Of a stretch of 64,000 bases of DNA, positions 1,700 to 27,971 are shown one piece after another. The stretch comes from an uncultured Nitrospiraceae bacterium. GTDB lineage: Bacteria > Nitrospirota > Nitrospiria > Nitrospirales > Nitrospiraceae. Every line of letters begins with the position of its first letter. Positions within the stretch are counted from its first letter, which is position 1. Where the stretch lies: the NCBI GenBank assembly GCA_963706325.1, contig CAVPLT010000004.1:1-64000 (forward strand), read 5' to 3'. A program made the position numbers and the translations under genes. A model generated the notes under the pieces. It did no database searches, was not told where the DNA came from, and saw only the letters and a program-made list of their open reading frames with translations.

Positions 1700-1702
1700 C
1701 AT

Positions 1703-1779
1703 TGGTGCCCCCGGCCTGAATTGAACAGGCGACCTTCGGTTTAGGAAACCGCTGCTCTATCCAACTGAGCTACGGGGGC
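1703..1779 (-). tRNA. tRNA-Arg (CCT)
   Basis: Folds as a 77-nt cloverleaf: GCCCCCG/CGGGGGC acceptor, anticodon loop TTCCTAA, T arm GCCTG-TTCAATT-CAGGC, encoded CCA. Confidence 0.97.
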
Positions 1780-1780
1780 A
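1741..1780. repeat. att direct repeat, left copy (tRNA-Arg 5' half)
   Basis: 40 bp identical to 27888-27927. Confidence 0.95.
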
Positions 1781-1791
1781 ACGTTATTTTT

Positions 1792-1804
1792 CAATAGCTT
1801 GATA
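1792..1804 (-). promoter_or_regulatory. IHF-consensus site in island att arm
   Basis: TATCAAGCTATTG matches WATCAANNNNTTR. Confidence 0.55.
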
Positions 1805-1832
1805 CTCTATTGGCCAGCTGATGAATTGTCTA
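1804..1832 (-). promoter_or_regulatory. Putative island-supplied sigma70 promoter for tRNA-Arg, embedded in the integrase 3' end
   Basis: TAGACA (1832-1827), 17 bp, TAGAGT (1809-1804); the -10 box contains the integrase stop codon; 24 bp upstream of tRNA +1. Confidence 0.6.
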
Positions 1833-2919
1833 GTGTCATTACCGTGTCCGCTTGCTGAAGGTATTTATCTAACTTTGCAGCGGCCAGCGTCAAGTCACGT
1901 TCTTCTATAGAATTGTATCGCTTCCACATCTTCTCAGATTTATGCCCTATGATCCTCATGGCAGTGGCCGTGTCCACACCTGCCCGGCGAAGGTTGGTTG
2001 AGGCACAGTGCCGAAGATCGTGAAACCTGAAATCCTGAAGCCCTGCGGCTTTCAGCGCTGACTTGAAGGCCCTAGAAACCCTTTGAATAGGCTTGCCCTT
2101 GTATAGGAATACCCGGCTTGTCTCAAGCCTTCGCACTTTAGCGAGTTGCTGAAGTGTGGTTCTCACTGCTGGGGTCAACGGAACCTCCCGGCGCGTATTG
2201 GTCTTGGTGTCCACTGCTCGTAACAGAATGAACCCTCGCCTGAGGTCTACTCGGTCCCAGGTCAATTCTATAATCTCGCTGAACCGCTGTCCCAAGTGAT
2301 AAGCAAGCAACAATATCGGGCGGAGGTGAGGCTTGGCGGCCTGATAGAGTCGTGGCCATTCATCCTCACTTAGGACTCTGTCCCGCTCGTTTCGCGGGTT
2401 GGGCATGGCTACCTTTGCCGCTGGATTGCTGGCCACCAGTCCACGTCTCACAGCGATATTGAGGCAATGTTTTAGTGCCGTGTGGTCGTTGTTCACGGTT
2501 TGGAGGCTGGCTGGTTGGCCATCCTTCCTCAATCGCTGAGCGCGGTAGGTCTCAATGTCCTGCGGCCTGATCTCGCTAACAATTTTCCGACCGAAAAAGG
2601 GCATCAGCTGACCGGTGACTCGTTCCACTCGGTCGCGATAAGTCCTAAGCCCTTTCACTTCCTCCAGGCGGAGGTACTGTTTTGCCCACTCGCTGAACAG
2701 TATGGGCCTGGCTTCCTCAGTGAGTATTTTCCCAAGAAGGAGATTGGTTTTGATGGCCGCTTCCATGTCTCGCGCAGCCGTCTTGTTAAGAGTGCCAACC
2801 TTCCACCGTTTGAGCCTCGCACCAGGCACACCCGACGCCAGGCGAAGAGTCTTGCCGTCTTCAGAGGTGAGGACACGGAACGCGACGTAATAGCTATCAG
2901 GTCGTTTCGTCAATCCCAT
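1807..2919 (-). CDS. int: Tyrosine recombinase / phage integrase (island)
   Basis: GQRFSEI, TKT, FHDLRH, IGHK, KRY; start MGLTKRPDSYY chosen by alignment to the paralogue at 579 and SD GAGAGGG. Confidence 0.95.
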   Translation of the reverse strand: MGLTKRPDSYYVAFRVLTSEDGKTLRLASGVPGARLKRWKVGTLNKTAARDMEAAIKTNLLLGKILTEEARPILFSEWAKQYLRLEEVKGLRTYRDRVERVTGQLMPFFGRKIVSEIRPQDIETYRAQRLRKDGQPASLQTVNNDHTALKHCLNIAVRRGLVASNPAAKVAMPNPRNERDRVLSEDEWPRLYQAAKPHLRPILLLAYHLGQRFSEIIELTWDRVDLRRGFILLRAVDTKTNTRREVPLTPAVRTTLQQLAKVRRLETSRVFLYKGKPIQRVSRAFKSALKAAGLQDFRFHDLRHCASTNLRRAGVDTATAMRIIGHKSEKMWKRYNSIEERDLTLAAAKLDKYLQQADTVMTLDNSSAGQ

Positions 2920-2964
2920 TATTCGCCCTCTCACTCCTCCGAAGCTGCTAGAGCATGGTCCTTG

Positions 2965-3183
2965 TTATCCCTGAGTCGCGCGACCTTCCAGAAGCTTCTG
3001 CGTCTCGACCCGTGCCTTAACCGTGTGTTGATCGATCCACTTGTCGAGGTCATGCTGCTTGAATTTTACGAGGCGTCCCACCTTCACGAAGCCAAGCTTC
3101 CGTGCCGATACCCAGCCGTAGAGGGTCAATTTTGATATGCCTAGATACTCCGATGCCTCATCCATTGTCAAAAGCCTGCTCAT
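2965..3183 (-). CDS. xis: Excisionase / HTH_17 DNA-binding protein
   Basis: MSRLLTMDEASEYLGISKLTLYGWVSARKLGFVKVGRLVKF; SD GGAG; directly upstream of int. Confidence 0.88.
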   Translation of the reverse strand: MSRLLTMDEASEYLGISKLTLYGWVSARKLGFVKVGRLVKFKQHDLDKWIDQHTVKARVETQKLLEGRATQG

Positions 3184-3458
3184 GATCACTCCAGGAAAAT
3201 TTTGTTGTCTGTATCCCGCCGAGATCTGTCCGATTCCCGCCCTACATCCATGCCGCCTACCAGACGGCCCGGGTTGAAGAGAATTCCACAGCGGGTGCGA
3301 CCCGTGGCCGGAGAGCAGGGGACAGGCCTTCCCGGTCCCCTCCCGGTCTCGCCCCTCCAGGCCTGCCCACTGCGAGAGCCCCGTGCCGCCTCTTCTTCTA
3401 CGCCCCACCCTCGGTTTGTGAAGGGTGGGGCTACATAGTCTTGAAGAAGGAGGCGGAC

Positions 3459-3963
3459 ATGTCCGTTGATAGTTCTCTCGGTTCCTCGAACGGTGGACGG
3501 CCATTGAACCCGGTTCGGAAATACGGTGTACCTCGGTACCGCGTCACGCTCGTGCGGGAGGGCCGTGCCATTCCGGCGGCTGAGTCGGTGCATACATCGG
3601 AGGGCGCGGCCGCGATCCTCCGACCCTTGTTCGCCGGCTTGGACCGGGAGCAGTTCCTGATCTGCGGCCTGGATGCGAAACATGGGCTCATCGGCATCAA
3701 TGTCGTCTCCACCGGGTCGCTGACCTTGGCCATCGTCCATCCGCGCGAAGTGTTCAAGCCGCTGATCCTGATGAATGCCGGCGCCTGGATCTGTGCCCAC
3801 AATCACCCCTCCGGCGATATCACGCCGAGCCCAGAAGATCGTGTCCTGACCAAACGGCTGCGCGAAGCTGGCAGACCTGTTCGGCATTCCGCTGCTCGAT
3901 CATCTCATCCTCGCCGAAGAACGCTACTACAGCTTCGCCGACCAGGGCTGGCCCGGCGCTTAG
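3459..3963 (+). pseudogene. radC: RadC-like JAB domain protein, +1 frameshift near 3870
   Basis: VHPREVFK and AHNHPSGD motifs; the expected C-terminus DLFGIPLLDHLILAEERYYSFAD continues in another frame to TAG 3963. Confidence 0.88.
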
Positions 3964-4088
3964 CGGAGCAGCCGCAACACCCAGGCGGCTCCTGCGGCCA
4001 CTAGCGCGAGTCCAATCGCCGCCGTCCCCCAGGCGACCAGGTCGGTCGCCAACGCATTGCCGATGGTGTGAATTTGTTGCGCCGTCAT
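3960..4088 (-). CDS. Leaderless coat-protein paralogue, 42 aa (MTAQQIHTIGNALATDLVAWGTAAIGLALVAAGAAWVLRLLR)
   Basis: SD AAGGAG; shares DLxxWxxAxIGxAL with mature pVIII at 4178-4393; basic C-terminus. Confidence 0.7.
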   Translation of the reverse strand: MTAQQIHTIGNALATDLVAWGTAAIGLALVAAGAAWVLRLLR

Positions 4089-4143
4089 CCTTGCATCTCC
4101 TTCGCCGTTGCCCTACTCATGCTGTCGATGTGATGCGAGAAAG

Positions 4144-4169
4144 GAGGCAGGCTGCTGCCAGCCTGCCTC
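4144..4169 (-). terminator. Hairpin terminator after the major coat gene
   Basis: Perfect 11-bp stem GAGGCAGGCTG/CAGCCTGCCTC, 4-nt loop, short CTTT tail. Confidence 0.65.
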
Positions 4170-4177
4170 GATGGGCC

Positions 4178-4393
4178 TTACCCGCCCACAATCGCCTTCA
4201 CGCGCTTAAAGGCATAGATGGCCAACGCCACCCCAATCAGGGCCGCCGCCCACAAGAGCAGATCGGCCCGCACCGTGGCCACATCTGCGGAGACCGGAAA
4301 CAACTGCGCGAACGACAACGCCGGTACGCCCAATGCGAAGACCAACGCCATCAGGAACCCGGTGACTCCCTTCACCCATCCCACACCCTTCAT
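4178..4393 (-). CDS. Inovirus major coat protein (pVIII-like) precursor
   Basis: 71 aa: signal peptide ending ALSFA, 42-aa mature chain with acidic N-terminus, TM helix and basic tail FKRVKAIVGG; very strong SD AAGGAGG. Confidence 0.88.
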   Translation of the reverse strand: MKGVGWVKGVTGFLMALVFALGVPALSFAQLFPVSADVATVRADLLLWAAALIGVALAIYAFKRVKAIVGG

Positions 4394-4466
4394 AGAGCAC
4401 CTCCTTGTGCTATCTGGTGGAGTCGTCCACCCGCGCCGCCGGAATCCTCGCCGACGGACGAGCGCC

Positions 4467-4574
4467 TCAGTGACTCTGAGGCAGAATCAGTTTGATGATC
4501 AGCCCCACGGCAAAGCCGCCGAGCCAGAAGATCGCCGTGAAATAGGTCATGGCTTCAATCGCCGGCAGGTCCAT
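4467..4574 (-). CDS. Minor coat protein-like (pVII/pIX-like), 35 aa (MDLPAIEAMTYFTAIFWLGGFAVGLIIKLILPQSH)
   Basis: SD AAGGAG, single TM helix, directly upstream of pVIII. Confidence 0.7.
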   Translation of the reverse strand: MDLPAIEAMTYFTAIFWLGGFAVGLIIKLILPQSH

Positions 4575-4860
4575 AGAACACTCCTTCGCCAATCACCCGC
4601 ATCGATCCGTCCTCGTAGACTTCCGAGACCGATCATTCCATAGCGTCCGGTAATCTGCGCGGCCGTCAGGATCTCGCCGCTGTCCAAGAGATAGCGCCAG
4701 CCTTGACGGTTCGCTGATGAGCCTGCCCCGCCGAGGATGCGCACGGTTCGCTTCGGTGGTGGCGGAGTTGCTGGCGCAGATGGAGACAGACGCCCCAATG
4801 GATTCAGCAGACTGCCCGGCGCCGATGAGGCAGACGGAGGCAGACGTCGTGGTGCCACGG

Positions 4861-5568
4861 TCACTCCAGTCGCAGGGGTGTCCCTTGGTGCTGATTCAAC
4901 GACGACCAGGGCCGCCAGGCCATGAGGGCGATGGCAAAGAGTCCCGCGGCAATGCCGATCGCGATTCGCGCCGATTTGAAGATGGTATGGCTCCGCTTCT
5001 CTTCCTGGATCGCCGCCGACGCATAGCTCGAATAGTAGGCGTAGATCGCCGGTGAATAGGTCCCGACGAAGGCGCGAATGGTCTCGTGATCTTCGGGATT
5101 CCCCCGCACCTTGCCCTGATACTTTTTCGACAGGCCGACAAAGGCCAGCTTGCGAAACTTCACCGTCGCTTCGATCAGTCGCGTGACGCCTTGCGACATC
5201 TGCCGAAAATCCTGACTCATGAGCAGAATATCCACGCCGTAATGCCGATGGGTTTCGAGCCAGCGCAGCAGACCCGGCTCGACCTTCTGCATCGACCGAA
5301 AGACGGTTTGCGCTTCGTCGATAATCACCGCCGAGCCCGGCTCGACATGTGGAAAGGCCTGGAGGACTTCGACGGAGTCTTTCCAGATCGTGATCTGTTG
5401 TTCGAGGGCTTCGAGCTCAATGCCCGTGAACAACGCCAGCCGATCCAGATAAATCCCATCCACCGCGATATAGAGTCGTCGGCCTTGCCGGACCCACGGC
5501 AGGAACTTTTCGCAGATCGCGTGATAGGACTTCCCGGAGCCTGGCACGCCTTCATACAGTTCGATCAT
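4861..5568 (-). CDS. zot: Zot / pI morphogenesis ATPase; C-terminus probably continues in another frame to ~4600
   Basis: N-terminal Walker A GVPGSGKS, Walker B VIIDEAQ, HRHYGVDILLMSQ, TM helix; Pro-rich continuation in ORF 4547-4864. Confidence 0.93.
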   Translation of the reverse strand: MIELYEGVPGSGKSYHAICEKFLPWVRQGRRLYIAVDGIYLDRLALFTGIELEALEQQITIWKDSVEVLQAFPHVEPGSAVIIDEAQTVFRSMQKVEPGLLRWLETHRHYGVDILLMSQDFRQMSQGVTRLIEATVKFRKLAFVGLSKKYQGKVRGNPEDHETIRAFVGTYSPAIYAYYSSYASAAIQEEKRSHTIFKSARIAIGIAAGLFAIALMAWRPWSSLNQHQGTPLRLE

Positions 5569-5649
5569 CGCACTACGCCTCCAGAGCAGCCAGATGGTGC
5601 CCGGCCAAGATCGCCGTCCATCCATAGGCCACACTGACTGGTGTCATGT

Positions 5650-5925
5650 TCATGAGCCCCACCGCACAAACGGAATGGTTTGCAGAATGAACCGGGTTCC
5701 CATGGCGCTCGCCACGATGGCCAGCGCCTGACTCATGCCCGTCGCGCCCAGCACCCACGCATATTGATCAGGAATGACCGGCAGGGTGAGCCCTGCCGTG
5801 CCCATGGTGCTCAAGGTGCTGTCCGCCACGGAAAGCAGGGAATCCCAGATGCCCAAGCCCCAATCGGTGAGCGAGAAGAAGAACTCCTGCAGCCAGCAAT
5901 AGATGAGGGTCAGAATGGCCGTCAT
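5650..5925 (-). CDS. pVI-like minor coat protein (DUF2523-like)
   Basis: 91-aa hydrophobic protein ending RFILQTIPFV, between pIII-like and Zot; ATGA overlap with the upstream gene. Confidence 0.8.
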   Translation of the reverse strand: MTAILTLIYCWLQEFFFSLTDWGLGIWDSLLSVADSTLSTMGTAGLTLPVIPDQYAWVLGATGMSQALAIVASAMGTRFILQTIPFVRWGS

Positions 5926-7150
5926 GTGGTCTGTCCTCCTCCCACGAAGATGATGCGATAGGCGGCGAAGGAGGCAATGGCGATCACGAGCGTGCGGAGC
6001 ACGGTGAAGAACCAGGCCCACTGATTGAAGTCCACTTGCTGGTTGCCGAAGAAGGCCGAGGGGAGCGCAATCACCGGCAACGTCGAGGGCCAGGTCAGGG
6101 ATTTGAGGAGATTCAGGGTGCTGAGCAATCCGCTGCGTCGCCCAGATCGTTTGATGCGCTTGGAGGACGGTTCCGAAGGTTCGATTCTCATGTGTCCCTG
6201 CTGTAGCATGACGTGGTGGCTTCCGTCTCTTCTTGCTTGCGTCGTGGAGCCGTCGGGATTCTGGGTAGTTGTTGTGGTCGTCGTGGTGGTTTGCTGTTGC
6301 GTGTTCTGCTGCGGGGTACTTGCCGGAGGCGCGACACTATCGACGACGATGATGTCTCCCGCAGGCACGGGCTTCGGCTTGACGGTCGTCGGCATCTCAC
6401 TCGGGGACGACAGGCTGCGAGACGGTCTTGTCTGCCGGTTGCGTCGTGCCGGTCGTGCCGACGGGATTGGTATGCTGCTCAATGGACATGCGGAGCCGTG
6501 CGGGACGGTCACGAGATACTGTTGGACCGCCTGCTGGGCGTCGGCGGGATCGAGCGCTCTTGTAGCGGCGGGAGCAGCCCGGGACACCATCCGATGGCAG
6601 ACGTGGACCGGCGACCGACCCAGGACCGTGACGAAGAAGTTGCCGGGAAAGCCGTGCGATGCTTGAAAGGCCGACGACCCAGGCATGCAGATATCGATCG
6701 CCGCGCGCAGGGACTTGCCGGCTGAACTGAATACTGCGTGGGTAATCGTATGAGGTCTGGCCAGTTGGAAAGGTCTGGGTACCAGCATTGTACTGCCACT
6801 TGCCGGTCGGCGGGGTGAGGCCGCCGTTTTGATCGCGGCGAGGTCCGGTTGCGAATAGTACATCTGGGCCAGAACCAATCCGGCGCCGACTCCGAGCGCC
6901 GCCCAGTCCGACTGGACCAGCCACTAATCGAACGGCGAAGGAGCTGGCGGAAGGAGCGAGCGCAGCCGTCGCGACTTGGGACGCCAAGGCCGACCGTTGC
7001 GCGGCCAGATAGGCGATGCGTTCCGCTTGGGCGACGACCCGCGAGTACTGCGTCGTCTCTAGGGCGAGCGATTCGCCCGGTGCAAGACAGAAGGAGACGC
7101 AAGAGTGCCCAGATGAATCCGAGATAATCGGTGAGAGACAACAGTTTCAC
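5922..7150 (-). pseudogene. pIII-like adsorption protein, multiple frameshifts
   Basis: Signal-like N-terminus at 7150, Ala/Gly-rich hydrophobic segment (RLVAGPVG), Pro/Thr/Gln-rich linker (QQQTTTTTTTTTQNP), C-terminal TM anchor; pieces spread over three overlapping ORFs. Confidence 0.78.
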
Positions 7151-7221
7151 AATCGTCCGACTCCGAGGCCGGTGAGGAAGGCCAGTAACAAGACCGCGAC
7201 AAGGATAATGGTGAGATCCAC
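7147..7221 (-). CDS. Tiny TM protein, 24 aa (MDLTIILVAVLLLAFLTGLGVGRL), minor coat-like
   Basis: SD GGGAGG, GTG start, GTGA overlap with the pIII-like start. Confidence 0.65.
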   Translation of the reverse strand: MDLTIILVAVLLLAFLTGLGVGRL

Positions 7222-7242
7222 TGACCTTCCTCCCTCGGTCCG

Positions 7243-7506
7243 TTACTTCAAGACTTCCAATCCAGACAGATCGAAGAAGACCCGTCCGGTTTGTTCGAAC
7301 TTCCGCACTTCGATCGAGGCCCGGGCTTGCTTGCCTTCGGCTTGCTTACAGACGTCAATCAACGGCATCTGATCCTCCGGAATCCCCAACCGCAGAATCC
7401 CCGGATCTTTGCCCTTCACATAGAGATCCACCGATCTGAACACCTTGCCCTCCCGACTCCTCCGTTCCACATAGCCCTGTACCGCCCCCTCCGCTTTGAC
7501 TTGCAT
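7243..7506 (-). CDS. ssDNA-binding protein (pV-like), 87 aa
   Basis: SD AGGAGG before MQVKAEG; beta-rich OB-like pattern; size and position downstream of Rep. Confidence 0.75.
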   Translation of the reverse strand: MQVKAEGAVQGYVERRSREGKVFRSVDLYVKGKDPGILRLGIPEDQMPLIDVCKQAEGKQARASIEVRKFEQTGRVFFDLSGLEVLK

Positions 7507-7728
7507 CGTCGTGCACCTCCTGCATGAGTGAGTTGAATCGGAGTCAGCCAAGCGCCTGACCCACACGCCCCGGCCTTCAGACCGAGCTTTGGCGAGATAC
7601 TGAAATTCGGAGTCGCATTCCTGGCAGCTGACAAACAGGGCGCCCTTGACCCATCGGCAGGTCGCCCCATGGGCGCCACACCCGGGACACCCGCGTCGCC
7701 AGGCTCCGTTATGAAACTGTAAGGACAT
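7507..7728 (-). CDS. Small Zn-ribbon protein (CPGC...CQEC), in frame with the pV-like gene
   Basis: Two CxxC motifs; SD GGAGGAG inside the Rep 3' end. Confidence 0.5.
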
Positions 7729-8702
7729 AGGGCGTCCCTCTCCTCCGTTCCTTCAGCAGGGCGTAGTGCTTCTGCTTCCATTTCTTGGTCCCCGCATAGA
7801 TCAACTCCGTCAAAAATTGATCGCCTCGACAGGCCACCACGACCGCGAGCATCGACGCGACGGATTGCGCGAGCCAGGACGCCACGTCATCCAGCCGCTG
7901 CTGGATGCGTTCGACCACGAGTCGGCACCGCTTAAAGCCTTCGGTCAGGGCTTCCCACCAGGACAGCAATGGCGCCCGATACTTTTCGTACGATTCGGCC
8001 TCTCGCGTGGTCTCTCGGAAATCCACATAGGATCGGAGCACGCCCACGAGAAAGGCCCGCCAATCTTCGGCATCGAGCGTGAGGAGGGCCTTGGCGCAGG
8101 CTTGGGCCCGATCCTGTTTGAATTCCATTTCCCACCGGACTCCGTACGAGGCCGCGTCCTCCCGGCCTTTGGCCTGCAGTTCCAGCCGCTTGTCATAGAC
8201 CCGCAGCATGCTTTGGCTTTCCCGACTGCCGAAGTAGAGCGACTCTCCGGTTCGGACGCCTTCGCGATGATTCGAGGCTTGGATCACCTTGAATTGCTTG
8301 GACCGGCTCACGACCTGTCCGGCCTCCACGGCTTGCCGGACCGTCTCGACTGCGACAGTGGCCTCCCGGTCGTCCAGGGCCACATCGGTCCGTGTCACAT
8401 GGCCCTTCTGCGCGAAGATCCAGGCCAGGACCGTCTTGAGCTTGGTTTCATCCCACTGGGAGACAATCCCGGCCGAGAGATCCACATGCACTTCCTTCGG
8501 ATTGCGAGGCGCACCCGTCCCCAGTTTGCCGACGCCGGTCTTGCCCTGCGTCATGAGCTGGGCGACGGGATACCCGCGAAAGCCGGTCTCACTCTGGAAC
8601 CAGTCACCACCAATCAGTCTTGATCACGTCGTCCACCTCAGCCTTCGGGAGCGTGAAGGCCAGCCAATCGATCGTTTGAGTGAATCCTCCAGAACCCGTC
8701 AT
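7709..8702 (-). pseudogene. Rep_trans family rolling-circle replication initiator, +1 frameshift near 8620
   Basis: IDWLAFT at N-terminus (ATG 8702, SD AAGGGGG), TRTDVALDD, SLYFGSRES, LRVYDK, RWEME motifs. Confidence 0.9.
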
Positions 8703-8730
8703 TTCTTCCCCCTTGGCTTCCGTGCGATAG

Positions 8731-8770
8731 ACGCCCCCGTCTTACGCCCCCGTCTTACCAAGTCGGGGGC
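8731..8770 (-). other. Putative Rep_trans double-strand origin hairpin with 13-bp tandem duplication
   Basis: GCCCCCGACTTGGTAAGACGGGGGC then GTAAGACGGGGGCGT; resembles the CCCCC...TAA...GGGGG nick hairpins of Tn916/ICEBs1; just upstream of rep. Confidence 0.7.
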
Positions 8771-9023
8771 TGGTCGGCTGCGCGCGCCGCCGGCTTTCGC
8801 CGCCAGTCGCGCTGCGCCGTCCCGGCTTCCTCTTGGAGACGACAAAGGACGGACCATGTCCCTTGGTCTGCAGGGCTGCCTTCACCCGCTCCAGGTCGAA
8901 GCGCACAAATCGGCAGAATCGATCGACGGGAATCTCGCCTTTGCGGTAGGCCCGGCGGATCGACTTCGGGCTGACTTTGAGGACGGCGGCCAATTCATCG
9001 ACGGTCAACCATATCTGTTCCAT
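8742..9023 (-). CDS. HTH_17 / excisionase-like regulator of the phage module
   Basis: WLTVDELAAVLKVSPKSIRRAYRKGEIP...VRFD; SD AAAGGAG. Confidence 0.85.
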   Translation of the reverse strand: MEQIWLTVDELAAVLKVSPKSIRRAYRKGEIPVDRFCRFVRFDLERVKAALQTKGHGPSFVVSKRKPGRRSATGGESRRRAQPTSPRLGKTGA

Positions 9024-9100
9024 CACGTCTCCTTTAGGTTGCACGCACGATGTATGGCCGAACCATACGCATCGGCGTGCGGTGGTTAAAGAGGCCGGTT

Positions 9101-9140
9101 CGGGGACAGTAAGGGACAACAGGGGACACTAAGGGACACT
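9101..9140. repeat. Four tandem 10-bp repeats (consensus AAGGGACACT), operator/iteron-like
   Basis: cggggacagt aagggacaac aggggacact aagggacact. Confidence 0.75.
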
Positions 9141-9557
9141 ACGTCATCGCATGCAGAGCGTTCATCAGCACACGAAGAGAAGTCGGAAGCGGGTATGCAA
9201 AAAGGTTGTCTAAACTGACAGTTGTGAAGGGGACGCGATCAAAAGCAGCTCTAGGAGCGGTTATTCAGACATAGGGTTAAATCAGCGATGGAGATGAGAT
9301 AGGGCGAATGGAACTTGGGTGAGTCGAATGGGCGTGCCGCCGCGATCAAAATTATGGCGGAATATTACAAAAATCTGCCCTAGGGTCGAAATACTCGTCA
9401 GTAGGGCCTGACGGCTCTATTCATTGTGATGGCCGCAGGTCTCGGCAGTGGGCAGGAATAGCCAGTGGACCGGCAGGCAAAATCGGTGCAACGCAAAGCG
9501 TGGAGAAGTCGGCAGGAACACCACCAACTAGGCACGACTGCTCGTTGGGCACTAATG

Positions 9558-19943: not shown

Positions 19944-20236
19944 CTGATTCGCTGCGGTATACGTAACTCATCCTTCACAAGGACTTAATCGAATGGAAAT
20001 AACGCGGTCAAATCGCCCAGGCTAAGGGGTTCGGTAGCCCTGTTTTAAGGCAAAAGCATGTCAGTTGGACTGCTTAATTCTTGACGGGAGAGTGTCAAAA
20101 TTGGCCCTCATGCTACTTGAAAAGCGACCTCGTCCGCTTCAACGATTTCAGACCTTGTGCCAGGCGTGGGCTTCTCCAGAAGGGTCTCTCGCTCACTTCT
20201 TCCACCGACCGTCTCATGTTCTCCGCTGACGGGAGG

Positions 20237-20344
20237 TCACTCGCGCGGCGACAGGAAGAAGACGACACGCAAGACATAGATAATGCACAGAAACAGAAAC
20301 CCTCCAAAGGCGAGATGAAGGAGAAAATCGACGAGTTCATGCAT
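20237..20344 (-). CDS. Small TM protein, 35 aa (MHELVDFLLHLAFGGFLFLCIIYVLRVVFFLSPRE)
   Basis: SD GGAG, strongly hydrophobic. Confidence 0.55.
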   Translation of the reverse strand: MHELVDFLLHLAFGGFLFLCIIYVLRVVFFLSPRE

Positions 20345-20928
20345 GTAGCACTCCATGAAGGGAATTATGGAGAGAGTCTAATCGCGTGGTGTTACGTGGG
20401 TGTTCCGGCACACTCAAGGAACCTTAACGACACGGCGGCAGGGGTGGATAAGTTGAGGACGGTCGTCTGGGCGGGACGCTCGATGTGTGCTCGAACGAAG
20501 GCAGCTTCCATTGAACGTCCCTTTATATCGTGATCGATGACTCAGCGATCAAAAGCATGGATGGAGCGGAGTGCCCTGCAAGCTGCACAGGTCCCTCGTG
20601 AGAGCCTCTCTAGGCGCCCCGGTGATTCGATCAGGACCACCGACGTTGCTTCGAACAGCCAATTTCTCAAGGTCTCCAGGCCAAATCGAGGTTGGATGAG
20701 GCCATTCTATGGGTGACCAAAAATAAAGTCACAGACTGCATGCACCACGCACCATTCATTAATTGACCGCATAAAACGCATCCAGGGGGCGACCAGTTTT
20801 GCGCTACTGCAAAGGCCGAATCGAGATTTCTCCATACCACTCTCCTGTGACATACTGACCGATGACTGCGGCTGTGCGCTTGGTAGGGGAAGGCCGAGCG
20901 GAGGTCTGTTGCGATTCGTGAGTGCACC

Positions 20929-21639
20929 ATGACACAAGAAGACGCCAACATCATTGATCAGCCCGAAGGGCACCTCGGGACGCTGGCGACTATCGACTTC
21001 GCCGGCACGACCTATCAGGTCCCAGAGGGCATGACGGCGCTGAAGGCCTTGTGGCACGCGGGCCAAGAGGTGGTGAGGGGAGCGGGCTGCCTCGGCGGGT
21101 TCTGCGGCGCCTGTGCAACCTACTATCATACGAAGGATGATCCGAAGGTGCGGTCGGGTCTGGCCTGCCAACTGGCCGTCCAGGACGGCATGTCTTTTAG
21201 CTTCATGCCTCCGTTCCCAGCCCGCAAGGCTCTGTACGACATTCATACGCTGAAGGACCCGAAGAAACACCTCTTCGATCTCTATCCCGAAGCCCCGCTC
21301 TGCAAAAACTGTAATGCCTGTACCGAGGCGTGCCCGCAGAACATCGACGTGCGCGCCGGCGTCTGGAAAGCTGTGTTCGGCGAGTACAAGACAGTCTCAG
21401 AGATGTTTATGGACTGTGTGATGTGCGGGATGTGTAACCCGGTCTGTCCTGCCGACATTGCGCCCAATCTGGTGGCGCTTTATGTCAGCCGGGTCCAAGG
21501 GGCTCGCCTAACGGAAAAGGGGCCAGGGCTTGAGACCCGGATCAAGGAAATCGAAGACGGGTGCTTCGACCTGGAATGGGACAATGTGCTCGCCATGAAC
21601 GATCACGAGCTGGCCGGCTACGGTGCGACAGGGGCATGA
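20929..21639 (+). CDS. 2Fe-2S / 4Fe-4S dicluster protein (SdhB/FrdB-like architecture)
   Basis: GCLGGFCGAC...LAC, CKNCNACTEACP, CVMCGMCNPVCP. Confidence 0.88.
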   Translation: MTQEDANIIDQPEGHLGTLATIDFAGTTYQVPEGMTALKALWHAGQEVVRGAGCLGGFCGACATYYHTKDDPKVRSGLACQLAVQDGMSFSFMPPFPARKALYDIHTLKDPKKHLFDLYPEAPLCKNCNACTEACPQNIDVRAGVWKAVFGEYKTVSEMFMDCVMCGMCNPVCPADIAPNLVALYVSRVQGARLTEKGPGLETRIKEIEDGCFDLEWDNVLAMNDHELAGYGATGA

Positions 21640-21716
21640 TTCAAGGCCAGCCGAAAAGTTCAAAACAATTACTCTGTATGGGCTGAGAAGACGGAATATG
21701 AATCGGGGGGAGCCGC

Positions 21717-21923
21717 ATGACAGCTACGATACAGCTCGATTTCATCTTGGAGGAACTGCGTGTTCTCAACGTCGTCCTTGTACGATTCCTCAAGCACGAT
21801 GATGTTGGCGAAGAAGTCTTCTCTGGGGTTCAAACCGACATCGCGTTAATCAAAGGGATTGCAGCGCGGGTGAACGCTCAATACATGGTGCGGAAGCTCG
21901 AGCTTGGGACTTCTGAGGCCTAG
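21717..21923 (+). CDS. Hypothetical protein
   Basis: SD GGGGAG, 68 aa, helical. Confidence 0.55.
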   Translation: MTATIQLDFILEELRVLNVVLVRFLKHDDVGEEVFSGVQTDIALIKGIAARVNAQYMVRKLELGTSEA

Positions 21924-22207
21924 GCAGGGCCGGCAAGCAGAGTTCTTGAACGGGCCGTCCCGCGGCTCTGACGCTGCCGTTCGTATGGAGTTCGGCTAGT
22001 CGGCGACCTGATTTCGGCTTAGCAACAGAAGCAGTTTTCCCCAATCTTCCTTGGTGCGGTGCATTCGCGTGGAGTCGACCAGTACGCTCTTCTAGACTGG
22101 CCGTCTTATCGGGGTCGGAGTAATGGCGATAAGCATTCGAGTGATGAGTGCATTAATATTGCTAAGCTTGCTCAATCACGGATCCACACGAAAGCCGAGG
22201 TGCCGCG

Positions 22208-22369
22208 ATGACTGACTTCAAGGACGTTGAAGCGATGGATAAACGATGTGGGGTCTGTCCATTTTGCCAAGAGAACGGCTTTGACGCCATTGGGCTCAAG
22301 AAGCATCTTGTGATGTGGTGCGCCACCTTCAAGAATCTGCCTCCTATTTATAGGCCATTCTATGGGTGA
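22208..22369 (+). CDS. Small putative zinc-finger protein, 53 aa
   Basis: SD GAGG; CPFC...LKKHLVMWC. Confidence 0.5.
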   Translation: MTDFKDVEAMDKRCGVCPFCQENGFDAIGLKKHLVMWCATFKNLPPIYRPFYG

Positions 22370-22660
22370 CGCAAGGAAGAAATCACCGGCTCTGATAGAT
22401 CAAATACGAGTGCATCTTTAGGCAAGGCCACCACTCAGCCCCTTACCAACACGAATGGTCCTTCCCATCGGTGGTAGGCATCCTTGCGGTTACCATCTCC
22501 GTGACAGCACCTCAGCGGCTTCCAGGTATCGCATCACATACGTATCGCATCGCTTTTCATACCGTGCCTTTTAAGGAAAGGAGGATGCCCGCGCCCGTGC
22601 TGAGAGTGGAAATCCCTTAATTGTCATAGTTCTGCGGTGCGATGCCGGAATCGGGGCGCT

Positions 22661-22676
22661 TGGTATGCCTATTGCT
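22661..22676 (+). promoter_or_regulatory. Sigma54 (-24/-12) promoter
   Basis: TGGTAT-GCCTA-TTGCT. Confidence 0.65.
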
Positions 22677-22715
22677 CATCATATGGCACAGCAACTGAAA
22701 TAAGGAGATGCCAGC

Positions 22716-22829
22716 ATGAACATCCTCGCAGCCCTCACCTTGACCTTGTATTCTGGGACACTCGTGCTCCTCAGATGTTTCTGGCCTAAATGTGAAGCAG
22801 CGAGACTCCCCCACATACGTGCAGAGTAA
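22716..22829 (+). CDS. Small hydrophobic protein, 37 aa (MNILAALTLTLYSGTLVLLRCFWPKCEAARLPHIRAE)
   Basis: SD TAAGGAG downstream of the sigma54 site. Confidence 0.5.
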   Translation: MNILAALTLTLYSGTLVLLRCFWPKCEAARLPHIRAE

Positions 22830-23243
22830 AGCTGAACATGGACCCCATTACTTCTCTGAATAAAGGCGCATGTCATGACCCCGCGTCGGGTGAAATCGTG
22901 GACGTCTCTCACCGTACGTAAATAGTTGAGCTATCTTGGGCTCAATGACTACCCCCTTGACCCGCTCTTTCTTCACGCGTAGCATAAGACCTTGACGTAC
23001 CAGTTACGTCGACTGCTCTCTCCTACGCGCGTTGCATTCTCCCCTGCGCGATGGATCCCACGGTCCCCGCAGCTCCTACGCCAACCTCTTTCTGAAGCGC
23101 GGCATTCTTTGATGTCGCCCATTACGAATGTCGGCTCTTGCTTCAGCGAGTCGCAGCTCGGACAGGGAAAACTTTCCGGTTCCGTATCGGATTCGTCCCT
23201 GGTCAAGCAGGTCGTGGTGTTCTCAACGAAAGGGGTGCAGGCC

Positions 23244-23573
23244 ATGAAATGCTATACAATCGTGATGATAGGGCTCGTCTTGGTAGGGGGTGCCTCTCTC
23301 GCCTCCGCGAATCCCGCGATGCTGCCCAAGCATCCTGGGTATCCATCAGGCGGAGAGTATGCCAACGATACCGGGCAAAAGAGCCTGACCGTTGAGCAAT
23401 CTCTCAGCAGCGCCGCCGCGTCAGAGGATGCGCATACGAGCCAGAAACTGGTGGATCCCAACAATGCCAGGCTGCTGAAGCCGCAGGGAGCCGGTCAACT
23501 ACCCACGGTTCAAGGGCCTCAAATCAAAATTGAACCGCCGGTCACGGAGGCGACTCGTATGCCCAAGCAGTAG
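23244..23573 (+). CDS. Exported protein of unknown function
   Basis: SD AAGGGG, signal peptide ending ASA-NPAMLPKHPGYP. Confidence 0.75.
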   Translation: MKCYTIVMIGLVLVGGASLASANPAMLPKHPGYPSGGEYANDTGQKSLTVEQSLSSAAASEDAHTSQKLVDPNNARLLKPQGAGQLPTVQGPQIKIEPPVTEATRMPKQ

Positions 23574-23653
23574 CGCCCGGTTCACGCCTGAGGTAAAGGT
23601 CGTCGGCAATGACGGAAAGGTTCTTCCGTAGCGTGGGGATCGCAGGAGTGGCA

Positions 23654-24199
23654 ATGGGATTGATTCAGATTGGCCGACGCAAGAAAGATGGGGCGACTGA
23701 CATCATCACGACGACGATAGAGATCGCGGTCAACTGGGCCAGAAAAAGTTCCCTCTGGCCGATGACCTTCGGGTTGGCCTGTTGCGCGATTGAAATGATT
23801 GCCGCGGTGTCTTCGCGCTACGATATGGATCGCTATGGGGCCGGCGTCTTTCGCGCGTCACCCCGGCAAGCAGATCTGATGATTGTTGCAGGGACGGTCT
23901 GTCGGCGGATGGCACCGGTCATCCGGAAAATCTACGACCAGATCCCGGAGCCCGAGTATGTGATCGCCATGGGCTCATGCGCAACGTCGGGTAACATTTA
24001 CGACAGCTATAGTGTGGTGCAGGGTGTCGACCGGTTCGTCCCGGTTGATATCTACGTTCCAGGCTGTCCCCCGACTCCGGAGGCACTGTTCGACGGCATC
24101 TTAAAACTGCAGGAACGGATCATGCTGAAGCGGGTCTTCGTCACGCAACCGAAAGAAGTCAGGCCGTCGCTCAAAGATTACGATCGAAGCCATGCCTGA
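23654..24199 (+). CDS. nuoB: NADH-quinone oxidoreductase subunit B (orphan)
   Basis: [47 protein letters not shown]. Confidence 0.95.
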
Positions 24200-24445
24200 G
24201 CGGAGCCGCACCGTTCACTGGATAATCTGTTCCCCCAGAGAATTTGCAGAAAGCAGGTCAGCTCAGCAGGCCACAGAAGCGCAGATCGTCATCCTGTCGA
24301 TGGCCTAGTTCCTGGGTGCTGGTCAGTGATGGCAGGCCTACCATCAGTGGGCGCCATACAAGGTTACCACCATTAGGGCGCACCGAACCGTATCACGAGT
24401 CACATTGCGGTTCCCATTGCCTTTCCCCTTGCCAGGAGGTGAGCC

Positions 24446-24799
24446 GTGAAAGTTCTACTTCCGCTGTTGACCGTGCTCGCGCTGACCTTCGTGCCACCGT
24501 TTGCGGTCCATGCGAAACCACTATCCCCCGTCCAACAGCCTGAGAGCCCTGGCGCGCGAGATACTGACCAGCCCGCCAAGAGGCGATCGGAGCCCGACGT
24601 TCCGGCTATCCCTCCATCCCAAATGGATCCGGGCATGCAACACCTGCAAGAAGGCCGCGATGATCCCCACGCCTCCAGGGCACCGCGTAACCTCGATCCA
24701 AGCATGTCGACGAATCCTGACGTTGCGTCTCCCGGACGCGAGGGCATCCAGGATTCCCACGCCACCCAGGAGTTCAAAGGAAGTCAGGGGGTCCAGTAG
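24446..24799 (+). CDS. Exported Pro-rich disordered protein
   Basis: SD AGGAGG, GTG start, signal peptide ending AVHA. Confidence 0.7.
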   Translation: MKVLLPLLTVLALTFVPPFAVHAKPLSPVQQPESPGARDTDQPAKRRSEPDVPAIPPSQMDPGMQHLQEGRDDPHASRAPRNLDPSMSTNPDVASPGREGIQDSHATQEFKGSQGVQ

Positions 24800-24831
24800 T
24801 CACTCAACTGCATTCCACAGAAACGATCATC

Positions 24832-25317
24832 ATGACTGACCTTGCAATGTACGACGATTCTTTCCCTCCGATCCGACTCAGAGGACATACGCTCCTGTGT
24901 TTGCAAGGGTTCAGCGGAGAGGGATACAGTTCAGCGTTTGTTGAGAACATGGCTGTGGTCCACCGAACCCTTTCTGCCCATCCCGAGTCCCTGGTCGAGG
25001 TTCTGGATTCTCCCGATGCAGTATGTGGAGCGTGTCCGCATCACTATTCCACCGGATGTACGTTGAACGGGGATCGGTCTGAGGAGGGGATAAGAGACCA
25101 GGATCGCATCGTGCTTCGAAGGCTGGGACTGCAAGTGGGAGGTCGCATCCGCTGGCAAGACCTTCTTGACCGAATCCGTGCATCGGTGAGTGGCGCTGAT
25201 CTGCCGGCTATCTGTGGCAGTTGCCGGTGGTTGGCCCGTGACCTCTGTCGACAGGGGATTGATCGGCTGCGTGGCGAAGCAGCACATCCTAGTAGCCAAA
25301 CCAATCTTGGACCCTAA
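24832..25317 (+). CDS. DUF1284 family protein (putative Fe-S binding)
   Basis: LRGHTLLCLQGFSGEGYS, DAVCGACP, CGSCRW. Confidence 0.85.
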   Translation: MTDLAMYDDSFPPIRLRGHTLLCLQGFSGEGYSSAFVENMAVVHRTLSAHPESLVEVLDSPDAVCGACPHHYSTGCTLNGDRSEEGIRDQDRIVLRRLGLQVGGRIRWQDLLDRIRASVSGADLPAICGSCRWLARDLCRQGIDRLRGEAAHPSSQTNLGP

Positions 25318-25425
25318 CATGTCGCATGGTGGTGGGTACACGGGTCAGGAAGGAGAATGATCCATTGTGCCCCCTGACGATTGCAAGGCCAGAACAGGAA
25401 CCTGTCTAATCCGGAGGAACTGATC

Positions 25426-25670
25426 GTGGACGACCAGGCAGAAGATCAGCCGGTCCTGAATCATATCCAGCGCCTGCATCAGAAGAGCACCGGCTCTTTT
25501 CACAGAGGGTGCGCACCAAGGCAGATCAGAAGCGGTTGGCGAACATCCAGGTCGAATTGGATCAGTGTTGGGACTTACTGCGCCAGCGTCGGGCATTACG
25601 TGACGTGGGGGAGGATCCGAACGAAGCGGAACTACGCCCACCGGACATTGTCGAGAATTACGAACAATAG
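25426..25670 (+). pseudogene. DUF2630 family protein, 1-bp deletion near 25477
   Basis: VLNHIQRL / SEEHRL...VELDQCWDLLRQRRALR...RPPDIVENYEQ in two frames; SD GGAGG. Confidence 0.8.
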
Positions 25671-25966
25671 CTTTCAGCGTCTGAACGATTAGGGCAGTAC
25701 GATTGATAATTTCTTTGTGACTCCGTGTTACATGCCAGACACTAGCTCTACAGAGTCTCCCTGTCCTTCATGAAAAAATTGACCCCGGTCGCGTTGTCCC
25801 AATCATGTCAGCGAGCATTTCTGGACTAACGTTAGGAATGCTCTGTTGAGGTTTCCCCTGCTTGCCGAAATTCGCGAGCACCCGGCATACAAAGGTTGGA
25901 AGTCTCTGCATATCCGAGCAGCTCGACCATAATCGACTGTTTCATGGCACCATTCCCGGAGGACAT

Positions 25967-26281
25967 ATGAGCAAATTGACAGGAATAATGGCCGTGATTG
26001 TTTCAATGGCTCTCGGAGGAGGGTCCACAGTCACGGCAGCTAAAGAGAAGGAAAATGCAGTTTCCTCATCTACGGAGGAACAGCCTACCGGCGAGTCAGT
26101 GAAAGGGACGCTGCTGAAGATAGAGGGTCAATACTTCGTCATTAGAGGTCATGACGGAGAACAAGTCCGGGTCCATGTAGACGAAACCTCCAAGCTGGAT
26201 CGGGTCGTGGAGGGCGACATGGTGAGAGCCTTTATCACCAAGAAGGGGCATGTGATGACCTTGCAGCGGTTAGAGAAGTAA
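25967..26281 (+). CDS. Exported small beta-barrel (OB-like) protein
   Basis: SD GGAGG, signal peptide, VKGTLLKIEG...GEQVRVHVD...GDMVRA. Confidence 0.75.
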   Translation: MSKLTGIMAVIVSMALGGGSTVTAAKEKENAVSSSTEEQPTGESVKGTLLKIEGQYFVIRGHDGEQVRVHVDETSKLDRVVEGDMVRAFITKKGHVMTLQRLEK

Positions 26282-26372
26282 CATTACTCAGCCTAAAGAC
26301 CTCTGCCTTTTTTGGCTCAGCACGACGGTTTGAATCGCTAGGTCTGAACGCAATGCCAGAGGAGCGACAACC

Positions 26373-26869
26373 ATGGACGGATCGGTTAGTAGTAGCTATC
26401 AGAAGAGCCTTGATCAGACATATCAAAACCTAATCAATTTGTGGACCGACGCAGTACGGTCTATAACAGCTTGTTCTCTGACTACCTCACGGCCAATTCT
26501 ATCTTTGTGGCGGCAATTGGCTTTTTGTTCGCACGTCAGCCAAGCACCATCATCTGTGTTGTGCTGATTCTCATTCTGTGCTCCTTTGGCATGCTCATGG
26601 CCGTGCAGATGGCCATTGTCCTTGGCCGCTTTTCTGCACAAAGGTGCCTATGGGAATGGCGGCTTCGGGGCATCGAGAAAACCAAAAACTGGTCACAGCC
26701 CAAACTCTTTGGTGACCTCCGTAGGTTTCAGGACTTTCATGAACCCCTCGATGATCCCTCCAACGATCCTCCGACATTACTGCCCAATCGAGCTATGCGT
26801 CAGCATCGGCAGTGGTGGGCGCGACGAGAGATTAGTTTTCCATTATTTTTTGAAAGGATAGGAGGTTGA
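26373..26869 (+). pseudogene. Two-TM membrane protein, frameshifted near 26460 and probably truncated
   Basis: SD GAGGAG at ATG 26373; reading continues in ORF 26441-26869 with two hydrophobic helices. Confidence 0.5.
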
Positions 26870-27400
26870 TGGCCTAAGCGGAGTCCAAAGACCCTGGTAC
26901 CGAGCGAAGCGTATCGGATCAGTGGAGGTCTTCCTGGCGAGGAGCTCGCCGAGAGCAAGGAGCTGCTTGACTCGGTCTAAGACTTGGCGAGACTGCTCAC
27001 TGGTCAATCCGTCCCGATTGAAGGCGTCGAGGATCTGTTGGATCACTCGGTCGGAGACTTCGGTGGAAAGATAGGATTCGGGGAAGGCGGAACTGGGCTT
27101 GTTTTGGGGGAGATTCGACATGGTGACTGCCGGCTTCAAGTTCACGGCGTCGACGAGCTTCAACACATGATCGACGAGGAACTGCTCCTCTTTGGTGTTG
27201 GGCGGAGGTCCTGGCACAATGACCTTTCCGTTCAGTTCGCCGTGCCGTTTGCGCAACTCTGCCACCATGTCGTGCACTTCCTGCTTGGTACAGAGACCCT
27301 TGCGTTCCAGCAACTCGACAATTGCTTCCATGACCCACATGTTGGCGAGCACACCTTCATCGACGGTGAAGGTCTCTCGGGGGGTGAGTTTCTCAGCCAT
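26843..27400 (-). CDS. Hypothetical protein
   Basis: SD AAGGAAG; EAIVELLERKGLCTKQEV helical N-domain. Confidence 0.7.
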   Translation of the reverse strand: MAEKLTPRETFTVDEGVLANMWVMEAIVELLERKGLCTKQEVHDMVAELRKRHGELNGKVIVPGPPPNTKEEQFLVDHVLKLVDAVNLKPAVTMSNLPQNKPSSAFPESYLSTEVSDRVIQQILDAFNRDGLTSEQSRQVLDRVKQLLALGELLARKTSTDPIRFARYQGLWTPLRPSTSYPFKK

Positions 27401-27454
27401 GGCGACTTCCTTCAGGCGAGTGCGTTGCCCTCGACAAGCTATGAATTCAGGGTT

Positions 27455-27631
27455 TCAACAAGGTTCGGTGACCGCAAAGAGGTTGAGGCAGGTGGGACAC
27501 ACGCAATTCTGATAGTTCTCCTTCGCTGCCTTCCATCGTGTTTGGTCGAGCGTCACCTTCTCACACCAGCACCCAGGAATCGGTGCGTTACAGTGAAAAC
27601 GTTTGCCACACCTCGAACATGCCTTGTCCAT
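27455..27631 (-). CDS. Cysteine-rich CWC family protein
   Basis: CSRCGKRFHC...CWC...CVCPTCL. Confidence 0.8.
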   Translation of the reverse strand: MDKACSRCGKRFHCNAPIPGCWCEKVTLDQTRWKAAKENYQNCVCPTCLNLFAVTEPC

Positions 27632-27887
27632 AAAGCGCAGAGTAGGCACTCGGAACACCACTGTCAAGGAGGACAGGCACTGGTTGACCATTCCACTGAA
27701 ACCTGATTGAAGAACTGATCTAGCGATTTACCCTACGTGTTCCGGGCGTGTCACGTCTACAGCAAAAACTGCCTCATTCCACCTCATTTCACCTGAACTG
27801 AACGCAGCTGAATAATCAGCGCAAAGCGCCTGTGGGAGCCAGTTTCAGCTGTACTGAGAACGGTTTGTATAGGAGTATCAGAATGGC

Positions 27888-27927
27888 TTAGGAAACCGCT
27901 GCTCTATCCAACTGAGCTACGGGGGCA
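27888..27927. repeat. att direct repeat, right copy: displaced 5' half of tRNA-Arg
   Basis: ttaggaaaccgctgctctatccaactgagctacgggggca, identical to 1741-1780 and ending at the anticodon loop. Confidence 0.95.
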
Positions 27928-27942
27928 GGCTAGAATCGGGAT

Positions 27943-27971
27943 ACCTTACACCAGTCTGAATGCGGGCTCAA
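27943..27971 (-). promoter_or_regulatory. Putative native tRNA-Arg promoter, now facing the half-tRNA
   Basis: TTGAGC (27971-27966), 17 bp, TAAGGT (27948-27943). Confidence 0.55.

Follow-up and report, generated by a model that had tools for sequence, protein, structure and literature searches.

A reverse-orientation island at tRNA-Arg(CCT) in a Nitrospiraceae genome and candidate promoters in integrase tails

The DNA considered here, 64,000 nucleotides from an uncultured Nitrospiraceae bacterium (positions 1-64000 of contig C4 of assembly G000, which comprises 4.24 Mb in 8 contigs; hereafter the window), carries a tyrosine-integrase element that lies between a displaced 5' half and the intact copy of the gene for tRNA-Arg(CCT), and that is composed of int, xis, radC, an inovirus-like module and variable cargo. 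The element is a reverse-orientation tRNA island, that is, one that replaces the 5' part of its target gene (5'-type, as opposed to the 3'-type), which is a known minority class. Islands of this kind must re-supply transcription to the tRNA, and the literature searched holds little direct evidence of how they do so. The explanation that best covers the observations, and that we regard as probable, is that the tail of the island integrase, IntR, would double as a promoter for the rebuilt gene, and that the promoter displaced by the island would be the tail of an older integrase, of a subfamily termed B. The chemistry of integration is left unchanged by this; what is added is that tail promoters may be kept after the death of an element and may replace each other in series.

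The island and its empty site

The features that define the layout are the following.
1703 to 1779, minus strand: intact tRNA-Arg(CCT) gene (ARAGORN and Rfam)
1741 to 1780, minus strand: tRNA-proximal copy of the att repeat (exact repeat), in which the anticodon loop, 1747-1741, is the inferred 7-bp overlap
27888 to 27927, minus strand: displaced tRNA 5' half, the distal copy of the att repeat (exact repeat)
1807 to 2919, minus strand: intR, 370-aa tyrosine integrase of the 5'-replacing island (Pfam PF00589; frame open from 2934)

The two copies of the att repeat, described in an earlier reading made from the letters of the window (the sequence-only reading), are identical in 40/40 bases, with no extension possible at either side, and comprise tRNA positions 1-39, up to the last base of the anticodon loop, and one base upstream. 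The displaced half lies 26.1 kb upstream of the intact gene on the same strand, within the range of the Islander-type criteria (tyrosine integrase, terminal tDNA fragment in the same orientation, 5' fragment upstream, 2-200 kb from the gene), and the island integrase scores 108 bits against PF00589, whose cut-off is 27.1. The crossover subsite falls in the anticodon loop: the 5' halves stop at the last base of the loop, those of relatives included, and a 3' half on contig C5 starts at the first. An Rfam search of 1-33000 returned the tRNA as its sole match; elsewhere in the genome, the sequence matches other tRNA genes, this 3' half (C5:334401-334440), which is identical to the 3' half of the window's tRNA, and a full copy at C5:349173-349249, so that the repeat is not a chance match.

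Relatives without the island reveal the empty site. Genome G023, the closest of them, is collinear with 27885-33500 at 90% identity, with this flank joined to an intact tRNA, and G014 and G022 have the same island-free 5' side, in which the flank from 27927 onwards precedes the intact gene. None of the three carries the 1781-1830 sequence upstream of its tRNA, and the sequence-only reading has thereby stood up to the first of its own refutation tests. The observation that integration replaced the tRNA 5' half together with the DNA upstream of it is thus confirmed. These three genomes share with the window a G-A mismatch in the top pair of the anticodon stem (window 1737 and 1753), where most relatives have G-C. 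Displaced Arg-CCT 5' halves with differing tRNA and flanks also occur at loci L156, L158, L165 and L167, apparently from other taxa.

The layout is on record. Islander lists a 5' tDNA fragment in 159/3919 islands (PMC4383910, Table 1), and 5'-distal recombination has been called considerably less frequent, with reference to Zhao & Williams 2002 (PMC6563490). The word 'promoter' does not occur in the accessible text of the Islander paper (PMC4383910). The island shares with catalogued reverse-orientation islands the tyrosine integrase, the anticodon-loop site, the displaced 5' fragment upstream and an intact gene rebuilt from element DNA. It differs from them in that the 5'-type is common in its integrase clade and in the host family, with several changes of polarity, and in that a sister 3'-type element in the same gene, a candidate tail promoter and its apparent survival after decay can be traced.

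A candidate promoter in the last codons of intR

Four features surround the start of the intact gene and the far end of the island.
1804 to 1832, minus strand: candidate element-supplied sigma-70 promoter TAGACA-17-TAGAGT (matrix score and consensus scan)
1833 to 1848, minus strand: arm-type direct repeat GACAC-N6-GACAC in the last codons of intR, 85 bases from the anticodon loop (putative function)
1792 to 1804, minus strand: predicted IHF-like site over the predicted start near 1797 (sequence match)
27737 to 27752, minus strand: far-end arm-type direct repeat, 135 bases from the anticodon loop (putative function)

Promoter-like hexamers precede both copies of the tRNA sequence, TAGACA-17-TAGAGT before the intact gene and TTGAGC-17-TAAGGT before the displaced half, where the sequence-only reading had placed them. 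On the minus strand, TAGACA occupies 1832-1827 and TAGAGT 1809-1804, with a spacer of 17, and the -10 hexamer contains the intR stop codon, TAG. Scoring used a matrix of two hexamers derived from the regions upstream of 39 tRNAs in G000; 28 of these regions contributed, the CCT genes were left out, and a few members of the training set lie behind integrase relics themselves. The intR tail reaches 13.0 bits, a score like those of native tRNA promoters; for 600 random windows the 99th percentile is 9.7, and 0/40 shuffles score as high. Its register is kept in G011, G016, G123 and the variant on C5, and TAGACA is also the ancestral -35 of the tRNA-Arg(CCT) gene. The intR tail probably acts as a constitutive sigma-70 promoter whose start lies near 1797, with assistance from int read-through.

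The attP would run, in order, through the integrase tail, the arm repeat, the IHF site, the tRNA 5' half, the 7-bp overlap in the anticodon loop and the far arm. To judge from lambda-type chemistry, this would be the usual attP of the family with the tRNA read in the opposite direction, and crossover would strand the resident promoter and set the integrase tail before the rebuilt gene, whose 3' half a related 3'-type element on the other side would supply. The stretch 1792-1804, which we take to match the IHF consensus, has a similar motif in most homologous integrase tails, the genome holds 4 HU/IHF-family genes, and the far arm-type repeat is also found beyond the displaced halves of relatives. 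The promoter swap claimed by the sequence-only reading is probably right in outline: the new, element-borne promoter is plausible, while the one at 27.9 kb is probably not that of the original host but the relic of an older element.

Homologs of intR were found in 96/301 family genomes (E 1e-60; the tally includes the unpublished G046). Another tally counts G114 in; apart from these tallies, nothing said here depends on either genome. A polarity sample of 92 loci was assembled, of which 90 were fetched best-first from the listed matches and the others are intL, the integrase of the neighbouring 3'-type element, and the C5 copy of the tRNA region. A full tRNA stands at the integrase end in 85/92 of them (58 5'-type and 27 3'-type), none being called in the other 7. 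With the threshold for tails at >= 8.45 bits, 20/58 5'-type tails score against 0/27 3'-type tails, counts in which kin are not independent; the 20 fall in about three clades. A tail promoter universal among 5'-type integrases was considered and rejected on these numbers, and the expectation that the motif would be conserved in homologous integrases at tRNA 5' ends failed with it.

Replacement of a promoter by integration at the 5' end of a gene has been described for protein-coding targets. The dusA-specific IMEVchUSA3, and SXT at prfC, bring a new promoter; for dusA the replacement was shown by reporter, at a lower level, and for prfC it is reported (all in the accessible text of PMC8409611). 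In both cases, as proposed here, the resident promoter is stranded and the element supplies the replacement. Here the target is a tRNA gene and the promoter, a candidate predicted from the sequence, overlaps the integrase stop, so that the island would work like the dusA/prfC class without being a member of it.

A probable older element behind the stranded promoter

On the far side of the island, three features are relevant.
27943 to 27971, minus strand: stranded promoter TTGAGC-17-TAAGGT (27971-27966 and 27948-27943), homologous to the integrase tail of subfamily B
28372 to 31042, plus strand: two genes for MFS transporters, located between the stranded promoter and the ancestral position of the tRNA, putative leftover cargo of an older element
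31190 to 31270, minus strand: hairpin and what is left, in decayed form, of the ancestral promoter site of the tRNA, following the gene that ends at 31292

In most genera, the order is a conserved gene (ortholog of 31292-31804), a hairpin, T[AG]GAC[AT]-17-TATCGT and then the tRNA. In G000, G023 and G014, the ancestral promoter position has decayed and is separated from the tRNA site by 3 kb that hold the two MFS genes; in G023 and G014 these genes stand directly upstream of the tRNA. The promoter TTGAG[AC]-17-TAAGGT of these three genomes aligns with that of G001, G004 and G007, and the G001 copy forms the end of an integrase frame that has decayed. A search with the G001 relic found matches in 14/301 genomes. 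Intact 400-codon integrases of subfamily B, 31% identical to intR, are present in G130, G192 and G225 and end in TTGAGG-17-TAAGGT with the stop inside the -10; in G130, a displaced half with the ancestral promoter lies 44.7 kb upstream. Among 30 B-related loci, 26 have a tRNA: the 4 5'-types comprise three scoring 10.8 and one scoring 4.8, and none of the 22 3'-types exceeds 8.3 (0/22 at >= 8.45).

Twelve relics compared with the intact B consensus differ from it by 2.8% in the -10, 36% in the spacer and 40% in the 10 bases downstream; the -35 differs by 8.3%, a value biased by its use as the anchor of the comparison. Variable columns number 3/12 v 13/17 (Fisher p 0.01, overstated by kinship among the relics). 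The hexamers thus appear to survive after the coding and recombination constraints have gone, which suggests that tail promoters work. In the G000 clade, the relics keep the promoter core alone, and homology is judged from about ten shared bases beyond the generic consensus and from the intermediate tail of G014. Taken together, it is highly likely that an older element of subfamily B, its integrase now decayed, brought in the displaced promoter at 27.9 kb, and that three promoters served the gene in turn (ancestral, B tail and A tail, the last being that of intR).

The alternative, that the 27.9-kb promoter is the true host promoter of one lineage, later captured by subfamily-B elements and never domesticated from one, gains from the fact that G000, G023, G014 and G022 have neither an integrase trace nor an arm repeat before it. 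We consider it quite improbable, because T[AG]GAC[AT]-17-TATCGT stands at 43/118 loci in many genera, and directly behind the conserved upstream gene, and because a TATCGT-type promoter is the one stranded before the displaced halves of G011, G016, G123, G125 and G130. The decay of the ancestral position in G000, 3 kb away, and the graded series of B relics in G173, G001, G004, G007 and G185 point the same way, and G130 in particular weakens the notion of a captured host promoter.

As to what the stranded promoter would now transcribe, no minus-strand terminator-like site was found in 26800-28500, and a 185-aa unnamed open reading frame (ORF) lies 490 bases on from it. By eye, the genes beyond the displaced halves of relatives include no shared gene and have no consistent direction, and the stranded promoter is credited with no role in the island. 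A short tandem duplication, 27986-28011, just upstream of the stranded -35, is absent from G023.

Read-through, regulation and the weight of the tail promoter

Several points weigh against a tail promoter in intR or against parts of the history proposed for it. No scoring motif is present in 38/58 5'-type tails, among them 27/27 at tRNA-Arg(TCT) and, at Arg-CCT, those of G004, G162, G196 and G273. The matrix misses several native Arg-TCT upstream regions, in one of which a tRNA-Pro comes immediately before, so that a low score does not equal the absence of a promoter. Many of the scoring tails have a -10 that lacks the final T, and the hexamers share letters with the arm repeat and the stop codon. 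The control is imperfect in that, once the penalty on an 18-base spacer is lifted, intL gives a 9.9-bit hit just beyond the scored window. The evidence from relics concerns subfamily B, not intR, and the relics share ancestry; four of them, in the G000 clade, lack likeness upstream (26-27 of 40 differences) and any integrase trace. An excised circle, sought as an integrase before a half gene, was found in 0/1 viral and 0/18 metagenome matches. Lastly, a contig of 270 bases from an RNA library (1631-1900, 0 differences, depth 4.84, given with no strand or start) reaches 70 bases past the -35, which fits read-through or carry-over of DNA. The RNA run covered one bin of 30, the one containing the tRNA, which is not taken as silence elsewhere.

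These points bear most on a rival in which the island is the same, but the tRNA is made just by read-through from xis-int or from promoters inside int, the motif being a by-product of the arm repeat and the stop. No minus-strand terminator-like site occurs between 3700 and the tRNA; further promoter-like hits lie 84, 318, 485 and 1362 bases upstream; the proximal motif is present in 0/27 Arg-TCT elements although that tRNA is presumably essential; and the RNA contig extends to 1900. We nevertheless think this rival, though a live one, unlikely, given that the motif scores like native tRNA promoters and keeps its register in clades with different tail peptides, that it is absent from 49 3'-type tails with similar arms, and that analogous tails outlive their integrases. 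A conserved TTGACA-18-TAT[CT]TA about 1.3 kb upstream was not counted as a promoter, for it lies in xis codons and may reflect constraint on the protein. Two Arg-TCT loci, L199 (G192) and L138 (G149), have the tRNA gene natively close behind an apparent tRNA-Pro 3' end, such that 5'-type islands there would cut it off from its upstream operon.

The sequence-only reading also held that recombination sites overlap the new promoter. This is so for the IHF-like site, but the arm repeat merely abuts the -35. From such an overlap one may construct a regulatory version, in which the promoter would be repressed or released by Int at the arm repeat together with IHF across the start site, so that AGG decoding would be coupled to the state of the element. 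A precedent is the intS promoter of KplE1, which overlaps attL and is repressed by IntS (PMC2951348, as far as accessible); it, too, is overlapped by arm-type and other recombination sites, with the difference that it drives the integrase, whereas the present one would drive a host tRNA. Besides the arm repeat at the -35, the IHF-like site over the start and the KplE1 case, this version can draw on the 11 AGG among the 44 Arg codons of intR, compared with 6% genome-wide. The orthologs, with 3-4 AGG codons, do not share this enrichment, and integrases at Arg-CCT are no richer in AGG than those at Arg-TCT (10.5% v 12.7%, p 0.26), so that AGG feedback on the integrase was rejected. Moreover, tRNA-Arg(UCU) can probably read AGG too, the geometry of promoter, arm and IHF site is forced by att spacing, and relic promoters persist after loss of the arm and IHF motifs. 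Regulation of the tRNA by the element therefore seems improbable.

Serial replacement across the family

An intact tRNA-Arg(CCT) gene was found in 118/141 family genomes, in a single copy in 116/118 of those matching. The census of upstream regions covered these 141 genomes: 119/120 matches were examined, the C5 copy being left out, and 118 had enough flank. They comprise 43 ancestral, 9 A-tail, 9 B-tail, 36 C-type, 3 D-type and 18 other loci, under motif-based class rules that were fixed after the data had been viewed. An integrase profile (HMM) hit ending <= 75 bases from the tRNA is present in 15/118. The C-type matches the tail of a third integrase, intact in G115 with a displaced half 15.4 kb away and further seen in G199, with traces in G142 and G138. 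For class D, an element origin is read from the tail in G068, which looks integrase-like by eye but gives no HMM hit. Thus, up to 57/118 family loci may carry tail-type promoters, 15 of them with a detectable integrase; most C rows have no integrase trace and were picked by hexamers, which makes 57/118 an upper-leaning figure. Three genomes show serial replacement directly: A followed B in G004, C followed B in G115, and A followed C in G188.

A more far-reaching reading can be offered tentatively: at least three or four integrase subfamilies would carry a promoter in their last codons, replace each other at one tRNA and leave the promoter behind on decay, about half of the sampled lineages would run tRNA-Arg(CCT) from a fossil tail, and the recombination proteins of an intact element could tune the tRNA. 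If the main explanation is right, mobile DNA would time and again overwrite core housekeeping promoters in nitrifier-type bacteria, and a 'host' promoter beside a tRNA could not be presumed ancestral. The graded relics amount to a natural experiment on integrase-tail promoters. The literature searched yielded no paper on promoters that decayed integrases leave at tRNAs; promoters may be treated in Zhao & Williams 2002, Williams 2002 and the 2020 TIGER work, and the accessible portions of PMC9897764, PMC13626063 and PMC1635311 add nothing on them.

A second integrase, att geometry and polarity

The sequence-only reading missed the phage-like genes of the island as well as a second integrase that meets the tRNA from its other side.
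579 to 1697, plus strand: intL, which encodes the tyrosine integrase of the adjacent 3'-type element and runs towards the 3' end of the tRNA (Pfam PF00589)
1641 to 1656, plus strand: arm-type direct repeat in the intL tail, 84 bases from the anticodon loop (putative function)

The intL and intR products are 62% identical (BLASTP, 229/367), the intR orthologs of G011 and G016 are 89-90% identical to intR, and no close named phage integrase was found, the best reaching 29%. A protein in the 90% cluster of a relative's integrase bears the label Nitrospira sp., and on this basis alone the family is taken to be Nitrospira-like. The intact tRNA would thus have been rebuilt on both sides, receiving its 5' half from the right-hand island and its 3' half from the left-hand element. 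Double occupancy also occurs in G004, G011 and G016, with another 3'-type integrase. The sister 3'-type element measures about 14.8 kb (window 579-1697 and G000:C5:334401-349249), with the same arm-like repeat at its far end, 132 bases from the loop. If the main explanation is right, sister integrases find two compatible landing sites, 5' and 3', in a single tRNA gene.

The genes that relatives have on the 3' side of the tRNA fall on C5, at about 317-325 kb. The stretch C5:347471-351906, which includes a full tRNA and an intR with a frameshift, shares 90% identity with window 1-4454; C5 and C4 would then adjoin at the tRNA, the C5 copy being a strain variant or an assembly overlap. The near-copy as a whole (G000:C5:347471-354453) shows frameshifts, followed up to the contig end by genes unlike the window's continuation, and is possibly a strain variant with a chimeric end. 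This near-copy, and indels relative to public contigs in the phage-like module, could suggest that the entire arrangement is an artefact of a metagenome-assembled genome. That idea is hardly credible: two contigs that look independent cover 1752-3198 with 6 differences and 1631-1900 with 0, the same layout exists in G011, G016 and G004, and for the tRNA-intR junction the idea is refuted, the RNA contig confirming the whole intL-tRNA-intR junction. For the junction at 27.9 kb, the only matches are those in relatives.

Arm-to-loop spacing is 85 in 15/15 Arg-CCT 5'-types and 84 in 4/4 Arg-CCT 3'-types, and in most rows of both polarities it is 83-86 bases, with exceptions in Leu-targeting groups and a few others. 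The family attP would accordingly keep its geometry, and just the captured tRNA half would differ between polarities. Displaced 5' halves were found in 4/5 Arg-TCT, 3/5 Thr-TGT (where the search pattern did not fit the other 2) and 4/5 Arg-CCT genomes tested. On a tree of 83 proteins, from which partial or stop-containing rows were excluded, polarity requires 4 changes, 1 of them forced by strong branches. A thinned set of 44 also requires 4, of which 3 are forced, and rejects the grouping of all 5'-types in one clade (p-AU 0.002, with a long-branch warning).

Other tRNA genes of G000 have displaced 5' halves too, namely Ser(TGA), Arg(ACG) and Pro(TGG), at C2:103820-122517, C4:596396-599868 and C4:659959-667906; Pro-TGG has a displaced 3' half as well. 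Integrase remnants precede several of these tRNAs, without a strong proximal promoter. At L140 (G233), L152 (G314), L202 (G225) and L193 (G012), and also at tRNA-Thr(TGT), half genes follow integrase-tail relics; these would represent stacked or decayed 5'-type elements.

Gene content of the island

The remaining features of the island are listed here.
2965 to 3189, minus strand: excisionase-like HTH_17 gene (Pfam PF12728; PHROG excisionase matches for the G016 ortholog)
3441 to 4004, plus strand: RadC-like JAB gene
3960 to 9119, minus strand: inovirus-like module
3960-4088, 4178-4393 and 4467-4592, minus strand: small hydrophobic ORFs of this module
4861-5634, minus strand: pI/Zot-family ATPase (PF05707; PHROG 197 and 11271)
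5650-6021, minus strand: pVI-like gene (PHROG 306)
within 3960 to 9119, minus strand: pIII-like region, in pieces
7709-8554, minus strand: Rep_trans rolling-circle initiator (PF02486)
8742-9119, minus strand: HTH_17 gene
9200 to 27700: variable cargo (PAS histidine kinase, methyltransferase, RlpA-like, Fe-S, NuoB-like and unknown genes)

Judged from its predicted genes, the core of the island is inovirus-like. The best phage matches of the pI-like ATPase are inoviruses, at 29-33%. The hydrophobic ORFs of 42 and 71 aa match no PHROG or Pfam family and, by eye, fit what we take to be the features of a short major coat protein that has a single membrane helix. Integrase-encoding inovirus prophages at tRNA att sites have been described by Roux et al. 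2019 (PMC6813254), in whose main text, as accessible, 'nitrospir' does not occur. They share with the island the pI-like ATPase, the pVI-like gene, the rolling-circle initiator, small hydrophobic ORFs and tRNA att repeats; the island differs by 18 kb of cargo inside the att sites, its 5' polarity and the lack of a detected circle.

The island ends and the module are the same in G011 and G016: the first 7.4 kb are 80% identical in DNA to both (1701-9138 in the case of G016). Several frames of the module are shorter than their G016 counterparts and public contigs differ from the window by single-base indels in it, so that read errors are likely. The cargo between 9 and 27.7 kb varies between genomes and is not common to G016, while the far 200 bases are conserved. 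In the orthologous island of G016 (L022:12386-19897), a 2503-aa RHS protein (SpvB, FG-GAP, TcdB_midN) takes the place of the window's cargo. Parts of this cargo (16943-17515, paired with 38018-38596, as well as 20929-21631 and 23713-24161) are diverged paralogs of genes elsewhere in the genome, at 72-79% DNA identity, and include the Fe-S and NuoB-like genes.

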